DNA of 64,000 nucleotides from Rhynchobatus australiae. Lineage: Eukaryota. Positions 640 through 64,000 of this stretch are shown here, piece after piece. Positions within the stretch are counted from its first letter, which is position 1; every line of letters begins with the position of its first letter. Under the pieces are notes generated by a model that saw nothing but the letters and a program-made list of their open reading frames with translations, was not told the origin of the DNA and ran no database searches. The DNA lies in the NCBI GenBank assembly GCA_034780895.1, contig JAUZTB010000135.1, positions 6,852,038-6,916,037 on the forward strand, written 5' to 3'. The position numbers were made by a program, and so were the translations under genes.

Positions 640-722
640 AACGAAAATACCGCAGATGCTGGAAATCTGAAGCAGAAAGTGCCAAACAGATCAGACAGGA
701 TTCGTGAAGAGAGAAATAGAGA
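640..722 (-). mobile_element. Penelope-derived short repeat fragment
   Basis: CGCAGATGCTGGAAATCTGAAGCAGAAAGTGC...CAGACAGGATTCGTGAAGAGAGAAA matches the GCAGATGCTGGAATCT motif found at 1969, 4049 and 44440. Confidence 0.6.
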
Positions 723-1129: not shown

Positions 1130-1430
1130 GCTTTCTCTCCACATCTCTGCAATGTCTTTTTGGGCTAAAATCATCCGGAATACTGGCAGTCCTAAATTCT
1201 GGTCACTTGATTACCCTGAATTTAAATACTCTACCAACAGTGGCTGTTCCTTCAGTTGACAAGACCCAAAGCTCTGGAATTCCCTCTCAGAAAATCTTTA
1301 CTTCTCCTTGTGCTGATGCAGAACTACCCCTTGGCCTCCACGGATATCACTTGACCTGCTGTGTTCCTCCAGCAGTTTGTTCTTTGCTCTACCTTTCCTT
1401 TGTTTAAGATGCTACCTTATTGGTCTTTCT
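1130..1430 (+). mobile_element. L2-clade LINE 3' fragment, interrupted by a Penelope-derived piece
   Basis: TGGCTGTTCCTTCAGTTGACAAGACCCAAAGCTCTGGAATTCCCTC...TTTAAGATGCT resembles the L2 3' end and is homologous to 24074-24275. Confidence 0.55.
1303..1388 (+). mobile_element. Penelope-derived short repeat with partial hammerhead core
   Basis: CTGATGCAG followed by CCTTGGCCTCCACGGATATCACTTGACCTGCTGTGTTCCTCCAGCAGTTTG, same family as 46800-46900. Confidence 0.6.
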
Positions 1431-1963
1431 GCTCTGATATTTGCAAGTGTGGCTAAATTTTATATGATTGATGATGCTGGTCTGAATCCATGAACCTTAG
1501 GGATGCAGTTGTTGTTGTTTAGTTCAATCAGCAGTTTAAGGACATTTAAAACAACACATCATTGAAACTTGCAGTTGCAATGAGGCCACATGACCTGTTG
1601 TATTTTACTGGTTCTTTGAGGGAGCAGTTACACTTATCTAGCATCCTTCTTCAGATCCCAATCAACTTATCTTTCAAGTATTTATGGAATCAAATTCCAT
1701 CACCTTTTCAGGTGGAGTGTCCAGATCACAGTTATTTTGAGTGGAAAAAAAATCTCCTGATCTCTGTTTTTGTTCTTTTTACATTGGTTTTTATTCTAGG
1801 TCCACTGGTGATTAAACCAAGTGAGCAAAGGGAAAAGATTTTCTTATTAAAACCTTTGTTCATGATATTGAAAATCTGCATCAAAACATCTTTTAGCTTT
1901 TACTGTTTGAAGAACAACCTTTAAGCTTTCCATCTTCTCTTCATAACTAAAGACCTATAGTAG

Positions 1964-2077
1964 AAGACGGCAGATGCTGGAATCTAGAACAAAAATAAAA
2001 CACTGGATGAACTGAACGAGTCGGGCAGCAACAAGTGTATGTCAACATTTTGGCTTGAGACCCTGCATCAGGTCTGG
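1964..2077 (-). mobile_element. Penelope-derived short repeat with decayed hammerhead motif
   Basis: GCAGATGCTGGAATCTAG...CTGGATGAACTGAACGAGTCGGGCAGCA; minus strand 2075-2041 reads AGAC-CTGATGCA-GGGTCTCAAGCC-AAAATGTT-GAC. Confidence 0.7.
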
Positions 2078-3505: not shown

Positions 3506-4036
3506 AACTCAGGAGGGCTAGTAGAGTCTGAAGCACCCAAAATGACATGAGGAACCTCGACAATATTGATTGGTGGATACAGGTTTTGGAGCTGAAATTT
3601 ACAATATGCAAATCTGCAATGGAAAATCATATGAGGCCTCTTCCAGCGCACAAGAAATACTCAACAAATGGAATTCAGCTAAGTAGAGGAGAGGTGGGAT
3701 GACATCTGGAAGGATAGTAGACTTGACACTGACTATGGCCAGACATGGCAAAGCAGCAATCAGCAAATAACATGGAATGCTGAGTTCCAGTGCCAAATCA
3801 GTANNNNNNNNNNNNNNNNNNNNNNNNNNNNNNNNNNNNNNNNNNNNNNNNNNNNCTGTTTCCTGAATACCGCATGCTGTTCTGCTCACCATAAGGCAGA
3901 ATTGTAATTTCAATGTTGTGATTAATCAACGCCGTATTAGGAAAACTTGAACTCGACATCCTTAAAGGAGGTGAATGCGAGGGAGTATTGTGGACCTCTT
4001 AAAGATGTATATGGATTAGATAACGTTAATCCTGAG

Positions 4037-4166
4037 ATACAAGAGACTGCAGATGCTGGAATCTGGATCAATAAACAATCAGCTGGATGAACTCAGCGGG
4101 TCCAGAAGCATCGGTGGGAGGAAAGGAATTGTTGGAGTTTTGGGTCGAAACCCTGCCTCAGTCCTG
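4037..4166 (-). mobile_element. Penelope-derived short repeat with hammerhead motif
   Basis: ACAAGAGACTGCAGATGCTGGAATCTGG...GAACTCAGCGGGTC; minus strand CTGAGGCA-GGGT-TTCG-ACCC-AAAAC has a perfect stem II. Confidence 0.75.
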
Positions 4167-4723: not shown

Positions 4724-7304
4724 CAAAACATACACTAGTTCTCTAGGAAGGATGTCCCTGATTTTATTTTTGCAAAATTGGGGGTAATGATGCCAATTCT
4801 GCACTGATTACACTTCCCAAAGGAGCAGACAGTTCCTTGTTCACTGGTTGTATTCTGCTGCAACGGACTTGCATGCTGGGTTTTAGAGGGCTCTAACAGT
4901 CAGCCATGCTGTTTCTAAACAGTAGTTGTGCATAAGCCAGACCAGGTTGGCTGCAGGTTTCTTATTCTGAAAAATATTGATGACTTTGTCGGATGTTTAT
5001 TACAATAAGCAGTCTGCAAGGTCACTTGTTCCTAGATTTATTGAATGCAGTCTCCCAAATTTACCACGGTGGTATTTAAATGTTACAAATGATAGGCTGA
5101 CCAACTTTTTTTAGCTGCAGGTTGCTAGTTGTGAATGGAAATCTGATGCAAAGAATGATATGTTTGATTGAAATAGTTAATGCCTGTATGAAGCACTGCA
5201 ATACAGAAGCATTATTTAACTTCTCACAACAGGGCCATTAGCAGGATCTTTGACTTCAATAAATGTAGCAGCTCATGTCAGTTACATAAGGAAAGTTAAG
5301 CAGTTTAAACTATTTCCTACCAAAGTTTATAGCATTGATGCATATTAACTGAGCCCTAGCCAAATTGTAGGTTGTGTCTTGTTAATATTTGTAAATTTTT
5401 GAATATTTTTCTCACTTTTTCCTTGCTTCTCCTTTCTGCTGTTCTATTTCTTCCCTGTTGGAAAGATGCTATGGTTGAACCATATGTTGGATGTGACCAA
5501 TTATGGCAAGAACGATGTGTGGATTTGGAACAAGCAAATTAGTTTCTCCATCATTGCTGTAGACTTGGTTAGTAGCAGTAGTTTTGTTTCAGTTCAGTGA
5601 TCCATCTAACTTGCTCTTGTAAGCTTCCCNNNNNNNNNNNNNNNNNNNNNNNNNNNNNNNNNNNNNNNNNNNNNNNNNNNNNNNNNNNNNNNNNNNNNNN
5701 NNNNNNNNNNNNNNNNNNNNNNNNNNNNNNNNNNNNNNNNNNNNNNNNNNNNNNNNNNNNNNNNNNNNNNNNNNNNNNNNNNNNNCCCACTTTTCCAAAT
5801 AGGAATTCATCTCGCCCTTTTTAAAAACCTGTCATAGTAATTTGTTCCACAATTTCACAGTAATGCAATAATGCTTTGGGCGAGCAATGGAACATACTAC
5901 TTTAAAAAGGTGAACGACAGCTGGAATACATTTCAAGGTGCGGTGGTTATGACCAGAGTAGCAGATGGATTGAAGAAACTGTTGAATGTGACAATGAGAA
6001 GATGGTAGGCTTGGGGATTCAATGAAAATGACTTTTGGAAAGGTGGCATCTATTGAGTCTAATGGTTGCTCTACACAACAATTGACCAAAAATGCCGGAA
6101 ACGATCCAATTGCTCATCTAGTTTCTCTAACCCAGACGTAATGCAGCCTAATTGCCCAATTAATTCAACCCCCTACTCCACCCAGTCCCTTAATCTCTAC
6201 CAGTTACACACCCTTAGCAAAGGCAACAAAAGCAGAAAGAACTGTGTGGACACAAACCATATATAAATGTACAATTTTTAATTTTAATCCAAACATGTAA
6301 AGTGCTATAGCAATGATGCTATCCTCAATTAAAAAAAAGCCTTGGTTTCATTAAAAATCTGTGAAAGTTATTCCAATTTGCCGTGACACATTTCCTCAGC
6401 TTTCCCCTGAGATTGTATCAAGTGCTGTTGTTTTGTAATTGCTGCCAGTTTTTCCACTTGCTCCCACTGGAGTTCTGCATAAGGGAGGGGGGGGGGAAAA
6501 ATTATCCTCCTGATGACAGAGTTGCCTGGATGATTTCATGCTTGTAGCATTTGTTCACGGGAATTTGTGAAAAATGTAACTGCAGCAGGGCACTGAAACA
6601 ATTAATGTTACTTTTAGTTTTTGACTTTGTGCTGTAGACTGAATGAAGAATTGCAGGTGTTTTACTGACCTGGTCCTGTGGGATTTTATGATGGTAGATT
6701 TTAAGAAGAAAGTACATGTGTTTGCAGAGTAAAGCAGCAGCTGTCAAGGATTTATGCCTTTGTCAGAACTGTAAGATTTAAAAATGTAACATTTAATAAA
6801 AATACATGGAAAGCAGAACAAATTTTANNNNNNNNNNNNATGAACTTTTGGTTTGATCTCTTTACCATAGCAGCAGCTTGTGGGAATATGGAATCAGAAT
6901 CTTGTACTATCTTAATTTAAATATGGTAAGTGAGATTATATGAGAAAATGTCACAGGATCCTTTTTATTACTTTGTAGCTTGTATGGGACCACACTTGAA
7001 CACGTAATTACTTTAAAAGGCCTTTTGTTAGTCTATAAGAATGATTACAAGTCCAGTGGGAGGTAGGAACCAAGTAGGTGATGTACAGAAGAGTCTTAAA
7101 CCATTGTGTATTTCATGAGTTGAATCCCAGACATATTCTTGACTTTCTGCTGTTTTGGATGCTTGCTTCAAAGGTTTCAGAATCAGTATGTATTTTTTCT
7201 GTTGGATGCACTGCTTTTTTCTATGCTTGCCTCAGGGTGTTAATTTTTTTTAATGCAGCATCTATGTGCACATACTATCGTATCAGAATACTTGTAACCC
7301 TTTA

Positions 7305-8080: not shown

Positions 8081-8318
8081 CTAGCATTCCCTATGGTTTT
8101 CCAGCCACTTTCTCAATCTGCTGTTACTTCAATGAAACATGCAAATATACCCAGGTACCTCTGTTCTTGTTCTCCTTTTAGCATTGCTTTCTCTGATTTA
8201 TGTTACCTCTCACCATTCCCAGCAAATAGTTCATTTCTTTTAAATAAACTTTGTGTAATTTCACCCATTCTAGTAAGCATCCAGACATTTGCATTCTACC
8301 AGCATGTGATATTGTTTT

Positions 8319-8467
8319 AAAAAAAACTGCTGGAAGAACTCACTGGGTCAAGCAGCATCTGTGGAGGCAAAGGGACAACCTGAAACGTCAACCATCCCTT
8401 TGCCTCCACGGAAGCTGCTTGACCTGCTGAGTTGCTCCTGATTTCAGCGTCTGCAGCCTCTTGTTTT
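8319..8467. mobile_element. Penelope-derived foldback element
   Basis: Arm GGTCAAGCAGCATCTGTGGAGGCAAAGGGA pairs with TCCCTTTGCCTCCACGGAAGCTGCTTGACC; the loop holds ACCTGAAACGTC, the hammerhead 3' half. Confidence 0.8.
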
Positions 8468-10094: not shown

Positions 10095-10210
10095 GAAAAA
10101 GAACCATTGCTGGAGCAACAATCTGCTGAAAGAACTCAGCGGGTTGATCAGCATCCATGGGAGGAAAGGAATTGTTGACGTTTCAGGTTGAAACCCTGCA
10201 TCAGGACTCA
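10095..10210 (-). mobile_element. Penelope-derived short repeat with near-complete minimal hammerhead motif
   Basis: Minus strand 10209-10171: GAGTC-CTGATGCA-GGGTTTCAACCT-GAAACGTC-AACAAT. Confidence 0.8.
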
Positions 10211-14054: not shown

Positions 14055-14195
14055 AAAACAGAAAAAAATGCTGGAAACATCTAAAGTTCTGATGCAAGCG
14101 ATTGAACTGTAATGCTGTTTCAGATGCTGCCTGACCTACTGAGTGTTTCCAGCATTTCCTGTTTTTATCCAGAATTACCAGTATCTGCAGTAGTT
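14055..14195 (+). mobile_element. Penelope-derived element with inverted 5' piece
   Basis: AAAACAGAAAAAAATGCTGGAAACA is inverted relative to TGTTTCCAGCATTTCCTGTTTT; contains GTTCTGATGCAAG. Confidence 0.65.
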
Positions 14196-15799
14196 TGGTT
14201 TTGGACCTGCTGAGATGCACTGCAATGGCACTTGCTGACTTGACTGTTGCGTCACAGAAGTCAAGAAAAGCTCTGCTGGCAAAGTGGGGAACCCTCTACT
14301 GTTGGTAAATGTGATCTTTGTATTCACATCTGGAAGGAGCATTGGCTGCAATTGCAAGGCTCCCAAATGCATAGCTATTTGTGGAGGGCACTCATGCCCT
14401 TACAGCCACCTCCCTTATAAACCCCAGTATAAATGCATCCAGTACTGTGGGGTCACCTGCTGGGCATATTGTTCTTCAGAAGCCAGTGCAGGTTCCTTAC
14501 TTTCCTCAACCAACCCTGCCCTTCGCCCCCCACCTGTCAAACCTTCCTAGGAGGCTTCCTCCCTGTAGCTGATAGCATGCTGGTTGTCCCATGGTGTAAA
14601 AACTACTTCCTGAAGTCCTAGTAGTGAGGAAAAGTGTGGCTAATGAGGGAAATTTGACCCTCAAGTGCTGCTATTGCTGGAACGGATTGCACTNNNNNNN
14701 NNNNNNNNNNNNNNNNNNNNNNNNNNNNNNNNNNNNNNNNNNNNNNNNNNNNNNNNNNNNNNNNNNNNNNNNNNNNNNNNNNNNNNNNNNNNNNNNNNNN
14801 NNNNNNNNNNNNNNNNNNNNNNNNNNNNNNNNNNNNNNNNNNNNNNNNNNNNNNNNNNNNNNNNNNNNNNNNNNNNNNNNNNNNNNNNNNNNNNNNNNNN
14901 NNNNNNNNNNNNNNNNNNNNNNNNNNNNNNNNNNNNNNNNNNNNNNNNNNNNNNNNNNNNNNNNNNNNNNNNNNNNNNNNNNNNNNNNNNNNNNNNNNNN
15001 NNNNNNNNNNNNNNNNNNNNNNNNNNNNNNNNNNNNNNNNNNNNNNNNNNNNNNNNNNNNNNNNNNNNNNNNNNNNNNNNNNNNNNNNNNNNNNNNNNNN
15101 NNNNNNNNNNNNNNNNNNNNNNNNNNNNNNNNNNNNNNNNNNNNNNNNNNNNNNNNNNNNNNNNNNNNNNNNNNNNNNNNNNNNNNNNNNNNNNNNNNNN
15201 NNNNNNNNNNNNNNNNNNNNNNNNNNNNNNNNNNNNNNNNNNNNNNNNNNNNNNNNNNNNNNNNNNNNNNNNNNNNNNNNNNNNNNNNNNNNNNNNNNNN
15301 NNNNNNNNNNNNNNNNNNNNNNNNNNNNNNNNNNNNNNNNNNNNNNNNNNNNNNNNNNNNNTTCAGAAATAGCACGACAGTAATTGCTAAAGCTGTTTTA
15401 ATGCCTGAAAAACAGTGCAGATAAAATTCTAGGCACTTTTCTCTGTACATAGAACATGCATTACCATTCTTAATTCCAATGTTAAGTCCCAAAATTGTTC
15501 TTTTTTGAAATGATGAAGTGTAAACCTGCAGGAAATTACCAGGGGGATGTCTATGAGGGCCCTTCAAGGATGTCAGCATTTTTTTGGAGCCTTGCAGTGC
15601 AGTCAAATGCCTCTTTCAGGTATGATGCAGTATGCATTCATTAAAAACAGAAAGTTTCTCACTTTACCAGCAGAATATTTTCACTTGTAGACAATCAATA
15701 TTCAGTTTTGCAATTGCGTTACAGACACATGGTATGTTAGCTCCCACAGGCCAGCAGTGGAATAGACATATACTAGATGTATCAAGCTCCCTACTGAAG

Positions 15800-19360: not shown

Positions 19361-19940
19361 TCAGTGAGAAACTTTGTTTTGAGTGCCATCCATACAGGCA
19401 TTGACATCAGTGCATTGAGGTAGTACAAGGGAAAGCAATAACTGAATGCAGAATAAAGTGTTACAGTTACAAAGAAAGTGCAGTGCAGGCAGACAAAAAG
19501 GTGCAAGGCCATAATGAGGTAGTCCGTGAGGTCAAGAGTCCACCTTATCGTACTGGAGAACCATTCAATAGTCTTATAACAGTGGGTAGAAGCCGTCCTT
19601 CAGCCTGGTGGTACATGCTTTCAGGCTTTTGTATCCTCTGCTCAATGGGAGGGGGGAGAAGAGAGAATGGGGTATGTGGGGTTTTTGATATGCTGGCTGC
19701 TTTACTGAGGCAGCGAGAAGTATAGACAGAGTCCATGGAGGGGAGGCTGGCTTTCATGATGTGCTGAGCTGTGTCCACAACTCCGTGATTTCTTGCGGTC
19801 TTGGGCAGAGCAAGAGTGCTTTCTGTGGTGCATCTATAAAAATTGGTGAGTGTCAAAGGGGACATGCCAAATTTCTTTAGCCTCCTGAGGAAGTAGAGGC
19901 CCTGGTGTGCTTTCTTGGCCAAGGCTGGCATCTACGTGGT
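19361..19940 (-). mobile_element. Rex1/Babar LINE 3' region; its tail is displaced to 18866-18891
   Basis: ORF 19545-19931 AKKAHQGLYFLRRLKKFGMSPLTLTNFYRCTTES...IIKxPHTP...TVIRLLN is the Rex1/Babar RT C-terminus. Confidence 0.9.
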
Positions 19941-23103: not shown

Positions 23104-24021
23104 TTGGAATTGGTTTATTGTCACATGTACCAAGGTAGAATGAATTAAACACAATTCATTACACAGTGCATTGAGGTAGTACTAGGTAAAACAATAACAG
23201 AATGCAGAATAAAGTGAACAGCTACAGAGAAAGTATAGTGCAGATAGAAAGTGAGGTGCAAGGTCATATTGTAGATTGTGAGGTCAAGAGTCCATCTTAT
23301 TGTACTAGGGAACTGTTCAATAGTCATAGCAGCAGGATAGAAGCCATCCTTGAGCTGGTGGTACATGCTTTCAGGCTTTTGTATTTTCTGCCCGATGGGA
23401 GAGGGGAGTAGAGAGAATGTCCTGGGTGGGTGGGGTCTTTGATTATGTTGGCTGCTTTACCAAAGCAGTGAGAAGTATAGACAGGGACCATGGAGGGAAG
23501 GCTGGTTTCTGTGAAGTGCTCTGTCCACAACTCTGCAGTTTCTTGTGGTCATGGGCAGAGCAGTTGCTATACCAAGCTGTGGTGCATCTGGATAGGATGC
23601 TTTCTATGGTGCATCAATAAAAATCGGTGAAGGTTGACAGGGACATGCCAAATTTCTTTAGCCTCCTGAGGAAGTAGAGATGATAATGAGCTTTCTTCGC
23701 CGTGGTTGGACCAGGACAGGCTGTTGGTGACATTCATTCCTNNNNNNNNNNNNNNNNNNNNNNNNNNNNNNNNNNNNNNNNNNNNNNNNNNNNNNNNNNN
23801 NNNNNNNNNNNNNNNNNNNNNNNNNNNNNNNNNNNNNNNNNNNNNNNNNNNNNNNNNNNNNNNNNNNNNNNNNNNNNNNNNNNNNNNNNNNNNNNNNNNN
23901 NNNNNNNNNNNNNNNNNNNNNNNNNNNNNNNNNNNNNNNNNNNNNNNTCAATGACCAGCTCTTTTGTTTTGCTGACATTGAGGGAAAGGTTGTTGTCATG
24001 ACACCATGTCACTAGGCTCTC
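23104..24021 (-). mobile_element. Rex1/Babar LINE, 5'-truncated
   Basis: Minus ORFs WCHDNNLSLNVSKTKELVI and YTSHCFGKAANIIKDPTHPGHSLYSPLPSGRKYKSLK; tail TTGGTTTATTGTCACATGTACC near 23110. Confidence 0.92.
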
Positions 24022-29264: not shown

Positions 29265-29604
29265 AGATAAAAGAAAAAAAATGGTAGAAATAAGAGGCTA
29301 GGAAAGGGAAGAAGAGAAGATGCATGGTGGGGGTGGGTGGGGAGTGCGGTTTGTGGGGAAGGGGGCGGGGAGAGAATTCAATATTCATGCTATTAGGCTG
29401 CAAGGTTCCAAGACAGAAAATGAGGTGCCATTCCTCAAGTTTCTGCTTGGAATTCTCCTGGCAGTGGAGGAGGCTGAGGACTGTCATTATCAGTGATAGT
29501 GTGGGAGGGTTGGAGTTGAAGTGACTGGCAACAGGGAGATGCAGATCGCGGTCTCGGACAGAGCTCAGGTGTTCAGCGAAACGGTCACCTAGTCTGCGTT
29601 TCAC
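29265..29604 (-). mobile_element. Penelope-like element, GIY-YIG endonuclease C-terminal fragment plus 3' UTR
   Basis: KRRLGDRFAEHLSSVRDRDLHLPVASHFNS...LLHCQENSKQKLEEWHLIFCLGTLQPNSMNIEFS has the R, H, H, E and N residues of the PLE GIY-YIG domain. Confidence 0.92.
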
Positions 29605-32600
29605 TGTGGTTAGCTACCTGGTTACAGGTTATAGGTTTATCTTGAATAATTGTATTCAAACACTACCGCATGGTATTCTCTGATCTCCAGCCACTGCTCC
29701 GACAGCCTTTGACAGCTCAGAGTTATTTAAAAAGTTAATGTGGAACCAAATAATTAAAAAAAATAAATAACTAAAAATATGATAAACTTGGTCTCAAGAA
29801 TTAATCAAAATATATTATACAGTGAAATAAAGAAAAATAAATAAAATATCTGAACTCAAATTTACCTTTGCAAAGATGTTTTGTAGGTCCATTCAAGTTA
29901 ATGTATTTGTCACCTGTACACAAACTAAGGCTGGCATAAAGTGGATGGGTCACTTGCACTTTGTATCTCGTCACTCAGCTCAGCATAATCTGGAACTTTT
30001 GTTGGACTCAGCTGTTCAATCTGAGGGGATCAGCGATACTGCTGTTAGATCTCCAGCACATTTCCATGGATGTGGCTAGCAAAGTGCATAGACGTGGCTA
30101 ACAAAGCTGCATTGAACATTGCTGCTCACTTCAAGATTTGATCCAGCCCATGGTTTTGTAATAACCTTTTTTGTAATTTATACCATGTTTATGAACAAGG
30201 CCATTGAGATGGATTTGGTACGTAACAGATATAAAATTCAAAACAGAATGCATATGCCAGATAATGCAGAATCCATTAATACTCTTTTATTGTACCATTT
30301 GCAGCTTTATATAGTAGTTTAAAATTGTTGCCCTACCTTGTGAATGTATTGTCACTGAGGTAATTTAGTGCTACAAAGCTCTAGTTAGATCTGAAGTTCT
30401 TTACATGGGACAGTAAAATTTTATTGGAATCCCTAAATTTACTAAAAATGAAAACAAATCAATCTTATGAGTCCTAGCAGACAAAAAATTAAACTTTACA
30501 ATGCAATATTTAAAGATTTATGACGTCTGTCTGCTTTTTATTCCACTTTGCTAAAAAAATAGTTACCTCACACTCTCTGTCCCTCCTGCAGATTGTATTG
30601 GTATCTTACTTTTCCCCTATTGTCCAGGTCAGATATTTACCTAAACCTTGTCTGTCTAAAAAAGATGGCTCTTTTTATTTTACAAACTTGTAAATTCAGT
30701 CCTTTTCATTAGAAATGTTCAGTTGCATGTTAAGAAGTTATTTTTGCAAACTATTTTCCCTCCAGTGGCCCAACATTTTTGACACATTTCTACTCATTTA
30801 AGAAATGATTTACTTTTAAACTGTCTGCCAGCATTTCAAGTACCATTAACTTAGATTGACTAAATGTACAAGTTTTGTTTTCATAATATTCATAGTTAGT
30901 TAGTGGGACATATACGGAAAATTTGGACTAATCCAAGGTGTTCTTTTTCTTCATTTTGGTTTCTATTCTTTTTCAATGACATTTTCTTATAGACCAAACA
31001 AATCTCTTAAAATATGAACTCTTTCATTTTAAGCATTGGCATATATTAACATTAAATGATAATTAAATGGACTACGCTGTAATGTTTTGTTAATCACATT
31101 CAGATAGTGTAACCTGACTGTTTCAAACTCCTTATGCCCGATGGATTTCTTTCTCATAACTGTACCTTAATCTAGCACATTATGCATTCCAATAGACTTC
31201 ACTTTCAGCTGTCTATAGTATACTATATTACTATGTTGTTCATGGTTATTATTTTGAAATGAGGATTTCCTCGGCTCCCATCCACTCTCTATCCCCAGCC
31301 CTCACTAATCGCCCCACCCACCTCACCTTAACATCCCTTTCCATTTACCATATTTCCCTTCCCAATCTCCCCTTGGATGCCCACTCATTCCCTGTACTCC
31401 ATCTAATTCTTCACTCTCCCTATTTGGGTTGGGGACAGGGTTGTATTCCAGATGTGTAAAAAGACACTGTCACCACACCATCCAACAGCTAGACTATTCC
31501 AGTTGTACAGTGAGGAATCATTTGATTTCTTGAGCATGTGTTGTAGCTGCGATTGTTAGTTTTCTCTCTTGGGAAGAATTCACATTAATTAAGCTCTTTT
31601 CCATTAATGCTCTCTGTAAAGAAGATCCTTGTTCTAGAAAGCACTGAGCAATGAAATAACATGGCAATGTAAAATATCGAAGTTCCAAAATGGAAACTTT
31701 GACTAACTAACACCTCTTATAGAATGCAACAGTTTTGCTTGGATTCTGTAACCAGTTTTACAGCAGTTGTAAATGGTAGAAATTTTTGGCTTCTTGATTA
31801 TGACTGTTCATTTTATTGATAACATTCTTACGTTACGTATTGAACTTATATAGAAACATTGTGGAGTATACTTCATATGCTAAACACTCTGATTTCATGT
31901 TACAAACTGAAAAATAGACATGACAATATATCTGCTGAAAAAAAATAACATTGGTCCTTTCTGAATATGAATTATCTGTCCTTGATTCAAGGCCATTTGA
32001 TTATTTGTTCCTGTACTTTCTGATGTGCTACACACATATATCATTAAGGGCATTAATTTATAAAATTCCTGCAAAGTGGATTTATTGAAAGGTATTTTTG
32101 TTTTACTAAACTCTTGTAATTCAAGTTGATTGATACCAATAATTTTATTAGCAATCATTCTTGGTTTCTCAAATGCATAATGTGAGTAAAATACTTAAAG
32201 TTATCAATTTTTGTAATAATATGCGAACTAGAATGCAATTAAGATATTTTATTGCCTTTCTAGTCTGTCTTGCATGTAATGTAACTTGTGGGGTATGACA
32301 GTTTTGAGTACATTAAGTTTTATTTTCATTTTAAGGCGATGCATCTCAATCTTGGTGTGGATCCATTTCTACCGAGCTAACTAATCTGCATTCATCACAT
32401 TCATTTTTGATTGTCTAAGCTGAAATTAATCATAAATTCATGTTGAATCCAGGTTAAATATTACATGAAATTTCAATTCATAACACCACACCCACCCATT
32501 TACAGTTTTTTGTTCTAGAGTGTGTATGTAAAGTAGCTCCACAGTTTTGATGATCATGTATTCTGTGACTTCTCCTCATAAAACTGGCAAAGTCCTTTTA

Positions 32601-33325: not shown

Positions 33326-33451
33326 AGAAGTAAAGGACCGCAGATGCGGCAATCCAGATGAAAAACACTATGGTGCTGGAGGAACTCAGCAGGCCAGGCA
33401 GCATCCGTGGAGCCTGGCCTGCTGAGTTCCTCCAGCATTGTAGTGCTTTTC
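33326..33451. mobile_element. Penelope-derived hairpin element with 15-bp TSD
   Basis: About 39-bp inverted arms at 33361-33399 and 33412-33450; AACTTGAAGGAATAG at 33311-33325 and 33452-33466. Confidence 0.9.
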
Positions 33452-34954
33452 AACTTGAAGGAATAGTACAATTCAAAGTAATTTTGGATGTGTTGCTTGT
33501 TCTCACCTTCGTGAGATTGGTTATCATCCAATATTATAAACTCTAACTGCAAAGCAATGCAAGACTGTTGCCTCTCAGAGTTGGGTGTGGAATAGACATG
33601 GCCCCTGCCAGGTTGTATTTATTCTGGAGCCAATACTTATTTAATGGCTGTGCTGTGATAAAAGTCAAACTTAGTTTTCAATGGATATTGACTCCTGCCT
33701 ATAACATTAACTAACTTGCCAGAACACCAGGCAAGAATAAAAATTTAAACATTTAAGTTAATATCGGGCTCTTAACTTGTACAATTTTCCCCCTTCCGTA
33801 GGGGATTCTCAGTGTACTGCTGATGTGGGTTCATTGCAAATGTCTTCACACCAACTCCAAAGTTTCAGGATGAATGCACTCAGTGAGTAATGAAAGCAAG
33901 CGAGTGTGAATGACACTTGAAGCTGGAATCTGAGATTCATGCTTCTGTGGGTTGAGAGTTCAACACTGTTGCAATAGATACTGCATACCTCAACCTGATT
34001 AACTTTGGAAAGTCAGAAACAAGGACGTATCCTTAACCACATTTAATTACTGAATTAGATTGACATCCTTTAAGAAAACATAGCTAACTATTCAAACAAA
34101 AGCTTGTATAGGTGTAAAATGAGCATTATTTAGGAATTACAACTCTGTAGGTTGTATGAACTGACTGGTAGGTGGTCAGAAACTACTCATTCTATAAAAT
34201 TTTCTGCACAACCTTTTGGTTCATTGAGCATTAAAGAGTTGCATGAATTGAAAGGGTTATGGCATTATCAAGATTGTGATGACCCAGGGCCTGCAGGCAG
34301 AGTAAGTGTTATTCTGAAAAAAACATCTATCGCAGAGTGGCTGAGTTTATCTGATTAAGGACCAGAAGAAAATCAGATTATTTGTTATTACATGTAATGG
34401 ACCTTCAGGAAAGAAATTGTCTGTGACAAGCATTAAAATTCAAACAGACTTGGTGTTGGCATGTAGTACAGTGGGGTTGAAAAGGTGTGGTGGTTTTGTA
34501 AATTTTTTCAGGAAAGACTTTATGCATTCAGAAACAGTGATGCAAAAGTAGTTGTCAGGTGCTTTTTACAGTCTATCCCTGTGGCCAGGAAAATTGTTAG
34601 CCTCTATTAAGATTCTAATCCATTTGAAATTCCTTCTTGCATTCCCATTGTGCTCTTTTACACTTTGACCGAGACAAGGTCACGGGTACTGAGCAAGTTC
34701 AGCCAGCTCCAGGTGCTGAAAGTAGCTGGAAACTAGATATGATGTTGGGCGTCCAGATAATTCCGTATTGTTAGTAACTAGGCTTATCATTATCATAACG
34801 CCTTTAACTGTTTATCGAGACCTTTGTTTTAGGAATAGTGGATCTTTAGCAGGGAATTTGCTTGCAACCTCCCAGGCAATCAGCAAGCTCACCCTGTGTC
34901 GGGTCTGAAGAAACTAATTCTTAATTGTGTTCGTGCAAAGTTAACCACTTTCAT

Positions 34955-44429: not shown

Positions 44430-44575
44430 CATAAGAGATTACAGATGCTGGAATCTGGAGCAAAAAACAAACTGCGGGATAAACTCAGTGGGTCAGGCAG
44501 CATCTGAAGAGGGAAAAGAACAGTTGATGTTTCAATTCGAGACCCTGGACTGAAAGAGTAGAGGGGAGATAGACA
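44430..44575 (-). mobile_element. Penelope-derived short repeat (hammerhead core deleted)
   Basis: ACAGATGCTGGAATCTGGAGCAAAAAACAAACTGC...AACTCAGTGGGTCAGGCAGCATCTG...GATGTTTCAATTCGAGACCCTG. Confidence 0.75.
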
Positions 44576-44744
44576 CTATTGAGTGTGATTGATGCTGTAA
44601 CTAACATTATTTCTGAGTCTTCAGCATTAGAAAATGCTGGTTCTTCTGTGGCTGAACAGCAAGTGTTGTTTTTGGAACAATTTGATAGAAAATTTCATTG
44701 GTGACAAACTTTGAGTGTTGCATTACTGTTGATGTCAGAGAGGC

Positions 44745-45303: not shown

Positions 45304-45655
45304 AACACCTCATTCCACCTGGGTAGTTGGGTAGTCTACAATCCATCAGCATAAACATTGAATTCTCCAATTTCGGGCAGCCTGCTCCTCCTCTGTCCCC
45401 TTCTTTCTGAGCTCCCCAGGCCCTCTCGTGCATGCCCTTCCTTCTTTCCAAACCACTCCTTGCCATCTCCCAATTTCTTTTCCCCACCTACTCTATCTGC
45501 GATTATCCACTTGCTTCTCTCACTGGGTTCCCTCTTTCTCCTCCCTGCTCCCCTCCCCACCATTTCCATCTGCTCATCATGCGTCTCTCATTTGGTCCCT
45601 CTTCGCCTTCCTTTCTCTTCGGATTCCATCCTCTGCAGCCCTTTGTTGCCTGCAC
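45304..45655 (+). mobile_element. Penelope-like element 3' end (GIY-YIG tail plus pyrimidine-rich UTR)
   Basis: CACCTCATTCCACCTGGGTAG...CTACAATCCATCAGCATAAACATTGAATTCTCCAATTTC encodes HLI..LG.LQ..SINIEFSNF, as in the 29265-29604 copy. Confidence 0.8.
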
Positions 45656-46634
45656 CACAGGAAGGGCCCCATTTCTGTGCTGTACAATTCTGATTCACGG
45701 CCCTATACCCATGTCAGCTTCTAATGCTGACCCCTTGATTCCAGGATTATAGAAATGTAGCATTAGATCTTTGTCATATTCATGGATGCCGTGAAACTGA
45801 CATAATGAGGACTTAACATTGCAGGATGCAGACGGAGCTAATGATCACATAAGAGAAGATTTTGCTGTTGGAAGTCCCCTGCTGTTTGTGCAGGTACAGG
45901 CCCCATGCTGTGCATGTCTGTCAACACGTCAAACAATGATCTAGCAACCATGAGAATGTCAGCATCAAGTTCATCAGTGGAAATGTTCAGCCTTTGATCT
46001 TTAACCAAGCCACACGGGCTTTACTGCTGCTCTGAGATTATGTAAATGAAAGATGGCTTGATTATACTGTTGGACTGCCCAAGAGAATCAAATCTTAATT
46101 ATAAACAAGTCTGATGCTGAGGGGCTAAAGGGGTATTTGATCACCAAAACCTTTTGCTTTACAAAAGAAACAAACATTCCTTGGAAATATGGTCAGCTTC
46201 AATTGCTTTGCCTTTTGTTAATCTTGAATTTCATTTTGAAATTAGTTTTGTTGCTGAGAGGAGCTGTCTGTTAGGAGTTGCTGAATCTGACATAAAGGAA
46301 TTGATTATTTCTACGTGGCAGAGAGACCCCTCTGTAGTTACTGGTTGGATTTGTCTTCTTCCTTGGTAGGAAGTGTTATTAATCTAGATTGTTTCAGAAA
46401 ATCATGTAATCTCTGCTATTAATTTGTTTGCAAAAGATGCTGAGCTCCTTTGTTAAGCTAGTTCAATTTAACAGTGGATGTCACTATTTGTTTTGGAGTT
46501 AGAGCCAATTCTACTGTAATTATCTTTATTAGCANNNNNNNNNNNNNNNNNNNNNNNNNNNNNNNNNNNNNNNNNNNNNNNNNNNNNNNNNNNNNNNNNN
46601 NNNNNNNNNNNNNNNNNNNNNNNNNNNNNNNNNN

Positions 46635-46900
46635 AACTCTTTCCAGCTATCATCCACCAGTTTTGAGACAAATTTCCCCCTCCCTCTCCCCCTTCCAGCT
46701 CCATCTGTCCGTCATATTCCACCTTACTTTGTTCCACCTATCACCTACCAGCCCCTGTCCCACCACTTCCTCTCACTTCTGTACTGGCTATCTTGCCTCT
46801 ACACTCTTAGTCCTGATGCAGGCGCTTGAAACATCGGCCATCCCTTTGCCTCCACAGATGCTACTTGACCTGCTGAGCTCTTCCAGCAATTTGTTTTTCG
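46635..46900 (+). mobile_element. Penelope-like element 3' UTR/terminal repeat with hammerhead motif
   Basis: C-rich UTR followed by AGTC-CTGATGCA-GGCGCTT-GAAACATC-GGCC and CCACAGATGCTACTTGACCTGCTGAGCTCTTCCAGCA. Confidence 0.8.
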
Positions 46901-48789
46901 TCCCAACTTTTATATACTATGCCCAGCCGATCAAGGCAAACATGCCACATACCTTCTTCACCACCATATCTCCCTGTGTTGCTGCTTAGACAAGCTTGAT
47001 GCTGGACAAAGAGCTCTATCAGTTATGACTATCTCAAGCACAAATGATGATATGATGGTTGTGACTGGCACCAAAGCACCCTGAAATGTATGCAAAATTG
47101 CTTTACCCCAATCTATAAATGATGGCCATGTGCAATTGCAGCAAGTAGATTAGTCGGATTGGCTTGTCCTTCTCCTTGGTTCACTCATCCCTTGCCATAG
47201 ACTCATTGAGGAACTGCTAACATCAAAATGATTGGAAGGGCAATTCAAAGTAAACCCCATCTATTCAGAAAGACGAAAGAAGTTGGAATGACTTTCCCAA
47301 TATACACATTCCACTTCTTCACCATTATGGAAGAGAAACTGCAGAGATGAGATGCACTAAGATTGAGGTGTTACTACAGAAGTGACAGGCACGTGCTGCT
47401 GATGTACTTCTGTTTGTTTAATTGCATTTGCTTTAAGTTCCAGTGATTACCGCACATTGCTGTTGGGAAGATTGGATTAGAAAGCGAGTAAACAATTGTC
47501 CATGAATCCCACTTAAATGTGACACAAGAAATTTCTTGATGTGTAAATGTCATTTCCAAGCCCCTTCATTGAGACTCATCTGNNNNNNNNNNNNNNNNNN
47601 NNNNNNNNNNNNNNNNNNNNNNNNNNNNNNNNNNNNNNNNNNNNNNNNNNNNNNNNNNNNNNNNNNNNNNNNNNNNNNNNNNGACTCATCTGAAAGGATC
47701 CTAATGACTTCTAATGAATAGCAGCAGTGAAAATAATAATGAACTGAATATGTGTTAACTGACAGTACACCGAAGAAAACATTTTCATGCAAAACTGTTA
47801 GGGGTACTTCTCAAAGGATTATGCCTCTATGCTGTTACCTTCTGTTGATTTGACGTGAATGGATTAGTAGTGTTTTCACAATGTAATTTTAGTAAGATTG
47901 ATGATTATTGCTGGGATAATTTTTGTTAGCCTTGCGAGCTCTTTTTTTCCAAAATGTCAGTGTTCCTTGAGCAAATTTAAACTTAATTGGTAAAAAAAAT
48001 TCCTTTGAAGATCCCAGCAGACCCACATAAGGTCTGAATGAGCTAGTAAAGAATAACTTGGCAACAGCTTAAACAGTTTGTTTCTTAAGCCTCCTTTAAA
48101 TTGTAATTAGTTCAAGCTCAGAAAATAGTTGAAAACTCCTGACAATGGATTAGAGTCTAGGTTTTATGGAGGGAAAGAGGACAAAGCTTTTGCTGAATTC
48201 AGCCAAGGTTATTCAATACTTCTGGAAAGTAGCCTTGCCTCTCTGCAGTTTGTATCTACACTGCACCAAATTCTGTTTGCTCATCTTACTGAGCTATGGT
48301 TCATGGTCCTCAGATTTAATTCTTTTGTTTTTTTTAAATTCCTCCACAATCTTCTGTAACCTTCTTCACACTTTTGGTTTTCCTGAATGCACTATTCCCT
48401 TGACAAAAGGCATCAGTGCTTTTCTGTACCTTTGCTACTGGTGGCTGCACATGACTCCTAACCCTCTGCCCAAGCCTTTGATCACTCCATCTCTGGCTCA
48501 GTGTTTTGTGCACATCCTTACACGATGATTCACTTCTAAGCTTTTCTGAGAATTTAATAGATGCAGTATGTCAGAATTGATTGCACTGCTGACAATTACT
48601 TCTGAAGTAAGAAGGAAAATCGAGAAGGGTACACTGTGAATAGAAGTTTCTCTATTTAACTGTTTACCTTGAATACAAAATCAAAAAATAAACTCAGGGA
48701 GACGTGTGTACTTCTAAACTTCTTGTGTTAGTGTTTACTGACCAGGCAAGTGGTAAGTAAACCAACATGAGGCATAAACCCACATTTTT

Positions 48790-55775: not shown

Positions 55776-56796
55776 GACCACAAGGATACCAGGTTGTAGG
55801 AAAACATGCTATTTGGTTCACCAAGGGTGTTTAGAGAAGCAGCACTTCTATTCTTACCCAGTTTATATATAACTCCAGATTTGCAGTAATAGAAAAACTA
55901 CGGCACAATTCAGGCCCTTTGGCCCACAAAACTGAAACTTCTGGAAACACTCAGCAGGTCAGGCAGCATGTGATGTAACATAGTTAGTGATCACATAAGT
56001 TTTTAGAAGCTAAGGTGGGTTCACCTTATGGCTAGAGGAAGGTGCACAGTGGGAGGACTGCAGTGAATATATCATACAGCAATTTCATTCAGAAATTCAC
56101 CAAATTTATATAATAGCCTTCAACTGAATATATAAATAATCTTTGCTTCTTTAATCCAATTACCTAGGCTCCCAAAATAGTGCACTCTGAAAGACTTAAG
56201 TGGTATCAAAAATACTCTTCAAATTAATGCCTTAGATCAAAGTAAAATTGGTAAATTGGTTTATTATTGTCACGTGTACTGAGGTATCGTGAAAATCTTT
56301 GTTTTTCATGCCATCCATACAGATCATTTCATTACAACAGTGCATTGAGGTAGTACAAGGGAAAAGAGTAACAGAATGCAGAATAAAGTGTTACAGTTAC
56401 AGAGAAAGTGCAGTGCAGGAAGACAATAAGATGGAAGGCCATAATGAGGCAAATTGTGAGGCCAAGAGTGGATGTGATGCTTATAATTTTAAATATATAT
56501 AACTTTTATTTTTTTGCTTTGTTTTCTCAATTCTTTCACACTCTCAGGACAGAATTGTAAATGCTGCCCAAATGATCTGCTATAAAAGATAGAAGAGGGG
56601 CGCAGTGTGCAAGTGATATGGAGTTGTTCAAATTTCACCACAGCAACTGTGGAATTTACATAGAGTTTCTTAACAAAATCTAGACCACAAGGATGCAAGG
56701 TTGCAGGAAAACATGCCATTTGGTTCACCAAGGGTGATTAGGGAAGCAGCACTTCTTTTCTTACCCAGTTTATATATAACTCCAGATTTGCAGTAA
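55776..56796 (+). repeat. 114-bp dispersed direct duplication (55776-55889 and 56683-56796)
   Basis: Ungapped manual alignment gives 7 mismatches in 114 nt. Confidence 0.9.
56248..56470 (-). mobile_element. Rex1/Babar 3' UTR
   Basis: TTGGTTTATTATTGTCACGTGTACTGAGGTA...GCATTGAGGTAGTACAAGG...CAGAATGCAGAATAAAGTG, as at 19361 and 23104. Confidence 0.88.
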
Positions 56797-62810: not shown

Positions 62811-64000
62811 TTCTCATCTCTACTGTGGTGAAGGATGTGGAAGCTAGTGAGTTAAGGAGAGGGAAATGTAATATCTTGGAGTGTATAAACATTACAAACA
62901 AGAGAAGTTTTGGAGGTCTTGAGATGCATAAAGGTGCAGAAATCCCCAAGGCCTGACCAGGTGTATCCTAGGATGTTATGGGAAGCAAGTGAAGAGATTG
63001 AGGGGGTCTTGGCGGAGACTTTGTATCTTCATTAGCAACAGGTGAAGTACCAGAAGATTGGAGGCCAGCCAGTGTTGTGCCTTAAGTAAAGAGGGGCAAC
63101 AAGGATAAGCCAGGGACTGCAGTCCGGTGAACCTTATAATGGTGGGAAAGTTATTGGAAAGGATTCTGCGGCGCAGGATTTACTTGCAGCTGGAGAATAT
63201 TTAGGGATAGTCAGCATGGCTTTGTGCATGAAAAGTCATGTCTCACAAATTTGATTTTGTTTCTTGAAGAGGTGACCCAGAGGATTGATGAGGGCAGGCC
63301 AATAGACAACTTCTACGTGGACTTCAGCAAGGCTTTTGACAAGATACCCCATGGCAGGCTGGTCTGGATGGTTANNNNNNNNNNNNNNNGGGATGAGCTA
63401 GCCAGTTGGATACAGAATTGGTTTGGTAGTAGGAGGCAGAGACTGGGAGTGGAGGGTTGTTTTTCCTACTCGAAGCCTATGACCAGTGGTGTGCCACAGG
63501 GATCTGTGCTAGGTCCTTTGTTTTTTTTGTCAAATATATTAATGATTCGGATGAATATGCAGGTGGTTGTGATTGGCAAATTTGCAGATGACACCAAAAT
63601 TGGTGGAATCAATACACAAAAAGTGCTGGAGGAACTTAGCAGGTCAGGCAGCATCTATGGAGGGAAATAAACAGTCGACATTCATCAGGACTGGAAAGGA
63701 AGGGGACAGAAGGGAAAGTTGGCAAGTGAAGGGCAAATGGAATTTAACTCGGACAAGTATAAAGTGACACATTTTGGGAAGTTTAACCAGGACAGGAATG
63801 GCAGGGCCCTCGGGGAATGTTGTTGAACAGAGAGACTTTTGAGTACAAGTGCATAGTTTCCTTAAAATGGGAGCGCAGTTAGACCGGGTGGTAACGAAGC
63901 CATAGAGCATGCTTGCCTTCATCAGCTGAGGCAATGAGTGGAAGATCTGGGATGTCATGTTACAGTCGTACAAAATGTTGGCTAGGCCACCCTTGGAGTA
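62811..64000 (+). mobile_element. CR1 LINE ORF2 reverse transcriptase region (frameshifted, runs off the window)
   Basis: KSCLTNLILFLEEVTQRIDEGRPIDNFYVDFSKAFDKIPHGRL...SGVPQGSVLGPLFF...KFADDTKIGG in ORF 63224-63670; upstream KSPRPDQVYPRML. Confidence 0.95.
63611..63712 (-). mobile_element. Penelope-derived short repeat inserted in the CR1 RT
   Basis: ACACAAAAAGTGCTGGAGGAACTTAGCAGGTCAGGCAGCATCTATGGAGGGAAATAAACAGTCGACATTCATCAGGACTGG. Confidence 0.85.

Follow-up and report, generated by a model that had tools for sequence, protein, structure and literature searches.

Minimal hammerhead ribozymes (min-HHRs) are known from the ends of Penelope-like elements, and the consensus given in the accessible part of PMC4209133 reads CUGANGA-H followed by stem II, with A9 fixed and one extra variable base. 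All 56 metazoan motifs in Fig. S3 of that paper carry A9, and none of them comes from a cartilaginous fish; the search descriptor behind most of the 56 requires cuganga, which makes a C9 family undetectable by it. Stems I of 3 bp, and even of 2 bp, occur among the published motifs (PMC4209133). That Penelope elements spread without a canonical hammerhead is also in print, as far as the available sections of two papers go (PMC8557442, PMC11167929): Naiad elements, which are without canonical hammerheads, reach very high copy numbers (PMC8557442), and in an anole element core mutants were without effect on insertion in vitro and the main template was uncut RNA (PMC11167929). These findings bear on why Penelope elements carry hammerheads, as a means of processing the RNA of the element or as a passenger. 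The new part reported here is a family-level variant in which A9 is C. A literature search that included the accessible portions of PMC3088659, PMC6765202, PMC3705267, PMC9901934 and bioRxiv 10.64898/2026.07.22.740005 found no family-level C9 and no measured A9-to-C rate, the main text of PMC9901934 giving no value for position 9.

In the window analyzed (64,000 nucleotides of a contig from Rhynchobatus australiae), a profile built from seven copies matched a single repeat in 13 pieces (E<0.001; Table 1). They represent the 3' end of a Penelope-like element in a decayed state, with no intact ribozyme among them, and the window copies themselves are fossils. The hammerhead announced at 46808-46840 in the original prediction is accordingly not intact, its stem II lacking five bases and its G16.2 reading A. 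No window copy passed a descriptor relaxed at position 9, and an Rfam search gave no match at the gathering score and, among 15 weak matches, none to a hammerhead family. The layout was kept in the copies at 2064, 4154 and 10197, although CpG-type decay has cost each of them G12, G16.2 or pairs. At least three tail types, named by antisense translation, were distinguished where a single subfamily had been claimed: IV (copies at 4154 and 10197), MV (1313, 46813 and the 8312 palindrome) and TV (63681 and 44436). The copy at 14089 has CAAG instead of CAGG after the box, another stem I strand and 53-76% tail identity to the rest, and from its sequence looks like a member of a further family.

Table 1. 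Positions of the repeat copies and associated features in the window.
Feature	Position	Strand	Basis
Variant base C at hammerhead position 9, flagged copy	46819..46819	+	letters read and copy alignment
Decayed minimal type I hammerhead (flagged copy)	46810..46838	+	alignment, fold; numbering after PMC4209133 Fig. S3
Flagged copy, stem I 5' strand	46810-46812	+	
Flagged copy, box C3-A9.1	46813-46820	+	
Flagged copy, broken stem II, 5 bases missing	46821-46827	+	
Flagged copy, G12-C17	46828-46835	+	
Flagged copy, stem I 3' strand	46836-46838	+	
Pyrimidine-rich 3' UTR / pseudo-LTR, N gap at left edge	46635..46809	+	likeness to stretch behind P0013 GIY-YIG end (E=6e-5, pairwise)
MV-type tail of flagged copy	46839..46901	+	alignment
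C9 (1319) copy with MV tail; deletion of stem II and the GAAAC box	1303..1385 (ends approximate)	+	
C9 (2065) copy, stem II and G12 decayed, tail not assigned to a type	1962..2075	-	
C9 (4155) copy with IV tail and N7=G; intact stem II of 4 bp; loss of G12 and G16.2	4036..4165	-	
C9 (10198) copy with IV tail; core best preserved of all, CpG decay at 11.1 and 1.1	10107..10208	-	
Copy of more distant family, inverted tail arm in front	14055..14197 (ends approximate)	+	
TV-tail copy, stem I 5 bp, position 9 ambiguous	63601..63710	-	
TV-like copy, six bases of first box deleted, position 9 ambiguous	44436..44578	-	
Palindromic (back-to-back) MV-tail insertion without first box	8312..8462	.	
Palindromic insertion, tail only	33332..33458	.	
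C-terminal piece of Penelope-type GIY-YIG endonuclease; UTR runs into N gap; separate insertion	29371..29613	-	ESM Atlas

The letters on which the variant rests were read back from the window. The box CTGATGCA, with C, stands at 1313-1320, 14089-14096 and 46813-46820 on the forward strand and at 10197-10204 on the reverse strand; at 2064-2071 (reverse strand) the letters also agree, the start given earlier as 2063 being one base off. The box CTGAGGCA was found as described in the 4131-4166 copy (reverse strand), at 4154-4161. At 63681-63688 (reverse strand) the letters CTGATGAA are present, but the copy loses its proposed role as the canonical A control: a deletion at this very point took away stem II and the greater part of the GAAAC box, and its AA may stem from either side of the junction. 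The six C-bearing boxes share one alignment column, in register within one repeat, and the base adjoining stem II is A in all six. Since the variant box has the same length as the published one, A9 has in sequence terms been replaced by C within CUGANGA-H; the insertion of a C between G8 and A that had been suggested does not describe the sequence, while in structural terms the next A could assume the role of A9. A coding reason for the change was unsupported, as in the copies read the frame opened by the ATG inside the box is no longer than about 21 codons.

Compared with published min-HHRs (PMC4209133), the copies share an 8-nt first box, a G-C-closed stem II, a GAAA-NN-UH box, the lack of stem III and a short stem I, as well as a location 3' of a GIY-YIG domain, at the end of the element, and occurrence mostly as single truncated copies; they differ in the C in the A9 slot, seen in 0 of the 56 motifs there. 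Instead of CUGANGA plus an optional extra base, the six copies read CUGANG-C-A. Stem II (3-7 bp and G10.1-C11.1 in min-HHRs) has 4 bp in the 4154 copy and in the majority sequence and is broken in the flagged copy, and the second box (GAAANNUH, palindromic at 15.2-16.2, no stem III) is intact in the 10197 copy. Stem I (at least 3 bp, type I) has 3 bp in the IV/MV majority and 5 bp in TV, CpG decay breaking it in most single copies. The C9 variant descends from, and would work like, a Penelope minimal hammerhead, but falls outside the canonical first-box definition. Family-level core deviations missed by a strict descriptor have counterparts in the U3-A8 variant of Schistosoma Cercyon (PMC4209133) and in the rare core variants covered by the accessible text of PMC3088659, although U3-A8 is a compensated pair and in the C9 copies G12 shows no change that would compensate. 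The chrysanthemum chlorotic mottle viroid likewise has two bases between G8 and G10.1 in its plus hammerhead; there, in the part of PMC3705267 available, A9 is kept and the second base varied, whereas in the C9 copies the first base is altered. In their relation to cleavage, the nearest parallels in the accessible texts are anole PAc Poseidon, where cleavage is dispensable in vitro (PMC11167929), and Naiad, without a canonical hammerhead (PMC8557442); unlike in these, A9 and C9 sister subfamilies coexist here, one core base and the length of stem I apart.

The Penelope identity of the repeat, assumed from the start, was borne out by a bridge through P0013, a protein from another contig, in which an inverted tail is followed by a GIY-YIG end like 29371-29613 (E=2e-5) and then by a UTR like that of the flagged copy. 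The pseudo-LTR behind a C-terminal GIY-YIG domain is therefore placed by this one indirect TV-tail bridge, and is discontinuous in the window. For the 29371-29613 piece the nearest ESM Atlas clusters were eukaryotic GIY-YIG proteins (score 0.94), with no Pfam or PDB match. Back-to-back insertions were a second argument: 5'-truncated or inverted insertions are represented by the palindromes at 8312-8462 and 33332-33458 and by the inverted arm at 14055, and both these and the order in P0013 agree with the Penelope-like layout in the accessible part of PMC8557442. The copies are dispersed singles, 0.75 kb to more than 30 kb apart in the window; a non-LTR retrozyme, which consists of tandem hammerhead units of 150-1000 nt, was rejected on this ground. 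No Penelope-like reverse-transcriptase piece was recognised in the window and no longer relative among 40 candidates; word-based protein searches with the window frames gave no match, and an Atlas search with P0001 no usable match.

Several neighboring sequences were recorded along with the repeat. Tail-only fragments lie at 55927-55969 and 644-684 (both reverse strand), the former 87% like the tail in the 14089 copy. A second Penelope-type endonuclease 3' end was seen at 45310-45700 (forward strand), matching the 29371 piece over 20 nt (E=0.06); a pyrimidine-rich UTR follows, and no hammerhead or tail was found behind it. The TV-type copy at 63681 is surrounded by a decayed LINE reverse-transcriptase fragment (63140-63670, forward strand; weak RVT_1 match, E=0.012). 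The two palindromic insertions yield spurious microRNA-like Rfam matches below threshold. A further dispersed repeat (19404-19931, 23145-23709 and 56334-56469; 78-93% identity), one frame of which matches Pfam ALKBH8_N (E=8e-10), is presumably a LINE-derived end and not the gene.

The bare 8-mer is near chance in the window (7 seen against 3.6 expected, the matches at 5143 and 49086 falling outside the repeat), and this twofold excess, together with the age of the copies, is what random decay or chance matches would have in their favor. The 10-mer CTGATGCAGG, however, was seen 3 times against 0.16 expected, and elsewhere in the window copies A-to-C changes occupy 1 of 130 cells, a background from which five parallel A-to-C changes would have a probability of roughly 1e-11. 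Because of the 10-mer excess and this background rate, C at position 9 does not reflect parallel random decay; with the shared register and the link to tail type described below, decay or chance is refuted, and would be a most improbable account, except possibly for the 14089 copy, whose C at 14095 may have an independent origin. The claim that C was inherited through a source element was in this way upheld.

The distribution of the variant beyond the window was assessed by proxy from spurious gene calls over the repeat (proteins from public contigs), with the base deduced from the codon. An antisense-translation profile collected 44 proteins and a second search three more; after subtraction of one unrelated protein and two same-locus pairs, 44 loci were left, 24 of which reveal position 9 while 20 do not. 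With five of the type calls made by eye and a profile derived from mostly C-type copies, position 9 was C in 12, T in 1 and A in 1 of the 14 loci with IV/MV tails, whereas A (7) prevailed over C (2) and T (1) in the 10 loci with TV tails (Fisher test of tail type against base: p=0.0015 for the 22 C/A loci, p=0.022 for the 18 in-frame loci). C therefore tracks subfamily, as had been anticipated, and we conclude that this core variant is genuine, was inherited and is tied to subfamily, in copies that are now fossils. Stem I also separates the types, being 5 bp long in the window copies with TV tails and 3 bp long in IV/MV. Between IV and MV, the tails differ at 11 of 49 positions in the raw comparison, perhaps 4-6 of which are not due to decay. 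The tail frequently has an open antisense strand, from which small proteins (P0001-P0055) are called in public contigs, a source of false genes.

Template switching can correct quasi-palindromes, and the A-to-C change perfects one here, so C could have recurred in inserted copies at a mutational hot spot without being a source trait. The TV loci, with C in 2 of 10 and T in 1 of 10 against a background of 1 in 130, would suit such recurrence; the same TV copies share the quasi-palindrome and yet keep A in 7 of 10, against C in 12 of the 14 IV/MV loci, which makes this account improbable. Template switching could explain the first origin of C or a few TV-type C copies, not the subfamily link.

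The reading that we favor, at a probability of roughly 0.5, is that two related source subfamilies carried C9, that their self-cleavage was likely weakened, and that the elements likely kept spreading because copying into the genome would not require the cut. In the accessible text of PMC11300833, A9 and G12 form a sheared pair and the chain turns sharply between G8, the general acid, and A9. With A9 as the usual partner of G12 (the general base), C9 would mean either that the A9-G12 pair is lost or that the next A slides in and forces C into a bulge next to the general acid, where the chain turns sharply from G8 to A9; either outcome would be expected to slow cleavage. Reverse transcription would then start in the tail on uncut RNA and end early, leaving short copies across the cleavage site. 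All six core-bearing C copies in the window reach upstream of the predicted cleavage site; copies of this kind fit uncut templates, and do so alike for an active and a dead ribozyme. As a counterpoint, the C subfamilies show no apparent change, other than C9 itself and stem I, in the reconstructed core, the 4-bp stem II or the ACGU palindrome. The chance of an unchanged core is 0.04-0.11 if 4-6 tail differences are true source changes; an unchanged core despite tail divergence hints at continued selection.

Predicted folds were obtained under 12 settings from models resting on two to three decayed copies per type, one common core and one common upstream sequence. Stem II of the TV/A9 model formed with P of at least 0.66 in 11 of the 12 settings (2.4-3.1 kcal/mol to the hammerhead shape), that of the IV/C9 model reached P of at least 0.4 in 2 of 12 (2.8-8.8 kcal/mol), and that of the MV/C9 model stayed at or below 0.04 in all 12 (4.6-8.8 kcal/mol). 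Swapping C back to A left IV and MV unrepaired (P at most 0.13), so their poor fold stems from the tail and the short stem I; in these models it would fit relaxed selection on the ribozyme in the C lineage. Free-RNA folding may mislead, however, because the anole hammerhead cleaves only with its protein, according to the available part of PMC11167929. A candidate rescue of the fold by C9, seen in the short IV model, was rejected, being lost across flank lengths.

The same short IV model, in which C9 frees stem II from competition by a tail helix (P 0.61-0.68 against 0.03), enters the case for a tolerated register shift, in which the A adjoining stem II would pair with G12, C would be bulged between G8 and A9, and a protein-assisted dimer would still cleave. 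The majority sequence kept the remaining core bases as well as stem II and the dimer palindrome while the tails diverged, the A precedes stem II in every C copy, and natural core variants with residual activity exist according to section 8 of PMC3088659, although the accessible text of that section names no position-9 variant and no G8/A9 insertion. The folding gain of C was not robust, C beating A in 7 of 12 IV and 3 of 12 MV settings, and stem I is shorter in the same C subfamilies. The site also appears sensitive: in the part of PMC3705267 available, the chrysanthemum viroid has its extra base after A9 and a change of A10 to C is strongly detrimental. We regard such a shift as possible but less probable than weakened cleavage, towards which the indirect evidence leans.

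The stakes differ between the two. The sister subfamilies, one core base and two stem I pairs apart and both amplified in natural genomes, form a matched pair. If C9 is dead, they would be evidence from within the genome that spread can do without cleavage; should it be active, the core consensus and the descriptors would need widening, and the variant would reveal which adenine pairs with G12 in minimal ribozymes. In the latter case, which we consider a tentative prospect, there would be a cleaving hammerhead class with C in the A9 slot and the extra adenine as partner of G12, present in thousands of copies in several cartilaginous fish and invisible to CUGANGA surveys.

C9 might also have been kept for another job, as part of a closed hairpin over the CUGAUG box that would switch cleavage off or shape protein binding. 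C completes the palindrome CCUG-AUG-CAGG, and the hairpin appears in the predicted folds of the 2064, 10197 and 46813 copies, with P up to 0.59 in IV models. It comprises only 4 bp and a triloop, however, its P was between 0 and 0.27 in 9 of 12 IV settings, the real copies folded no better than shuffles in 6 of 6 cases (z from -0.77 to +1.29), and no covariation was seen, so we hold this function to be unlikely, if slightly less so than the hot spot. IV-type stems II with a UUCG loop were recorded at 4142-4153 and 10185-10196 (both reverse strand), the stretch from stem II to GAAAC being a second near-perfect palindrome; in the centroid fold of the 10197 copy both hairpins mask the two core boxes.

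Abundance outside the window was estimated by mapping four of 13 listed runs (organisms A, B, D and E) to the 10197 copy at 80% likeness, which placed 7,853, 8,048, 15,524 and 11,851 contigs. The family is abundant in all four organisms, position 9 lying inside the end zone and so falling outside the count; the differences registered keep a distance of 31 letters or more from any piece end, with none past 10180, so that the lack of a row for 10198 is not evidence for C. The placed contigs are mostly of IV type, as few other letters occur in the tail. The CpG at 15.2/16.2 was the main letter in all four runs and decayed in 26-38% of the depth per base, which indicates an old family. Three of the 12 joint snippets listed (of 14 in all) span position 9, and all three have C (organisms D and E). 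Moreover, the 32 longest pieces among those listed all cross the predicted cleavage site, opposite-strand joints were present in the four runs, and loose ends run on into sequence like the UTR at 46635-46809.

Scans of other sources gave no further members. The core was absent from the prokaryote genomes scanned and the tail motif from the viral ones; viral scans with the C9 and A9 box patterns returned 65 and 43 loci (78 distinct) with no minimal hammerhead having a stem I of at least 3 bp, and are uninformative on C9 because the test and the A9 control were both empty. None of the 43 metagenome loci with the tail motif belonged to the element described here, and 15 were an unrelated repeat from one contig set. 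This set, Ga0209679 (L001, L003, L005, L006, L008, L014, L027, L029, L031, L032, L035, L038, L041 and others), holds a multi-copy repeat that matches the tail motif by chance and lies in a low-GC component, probably eukaryotic, of one metagenome.
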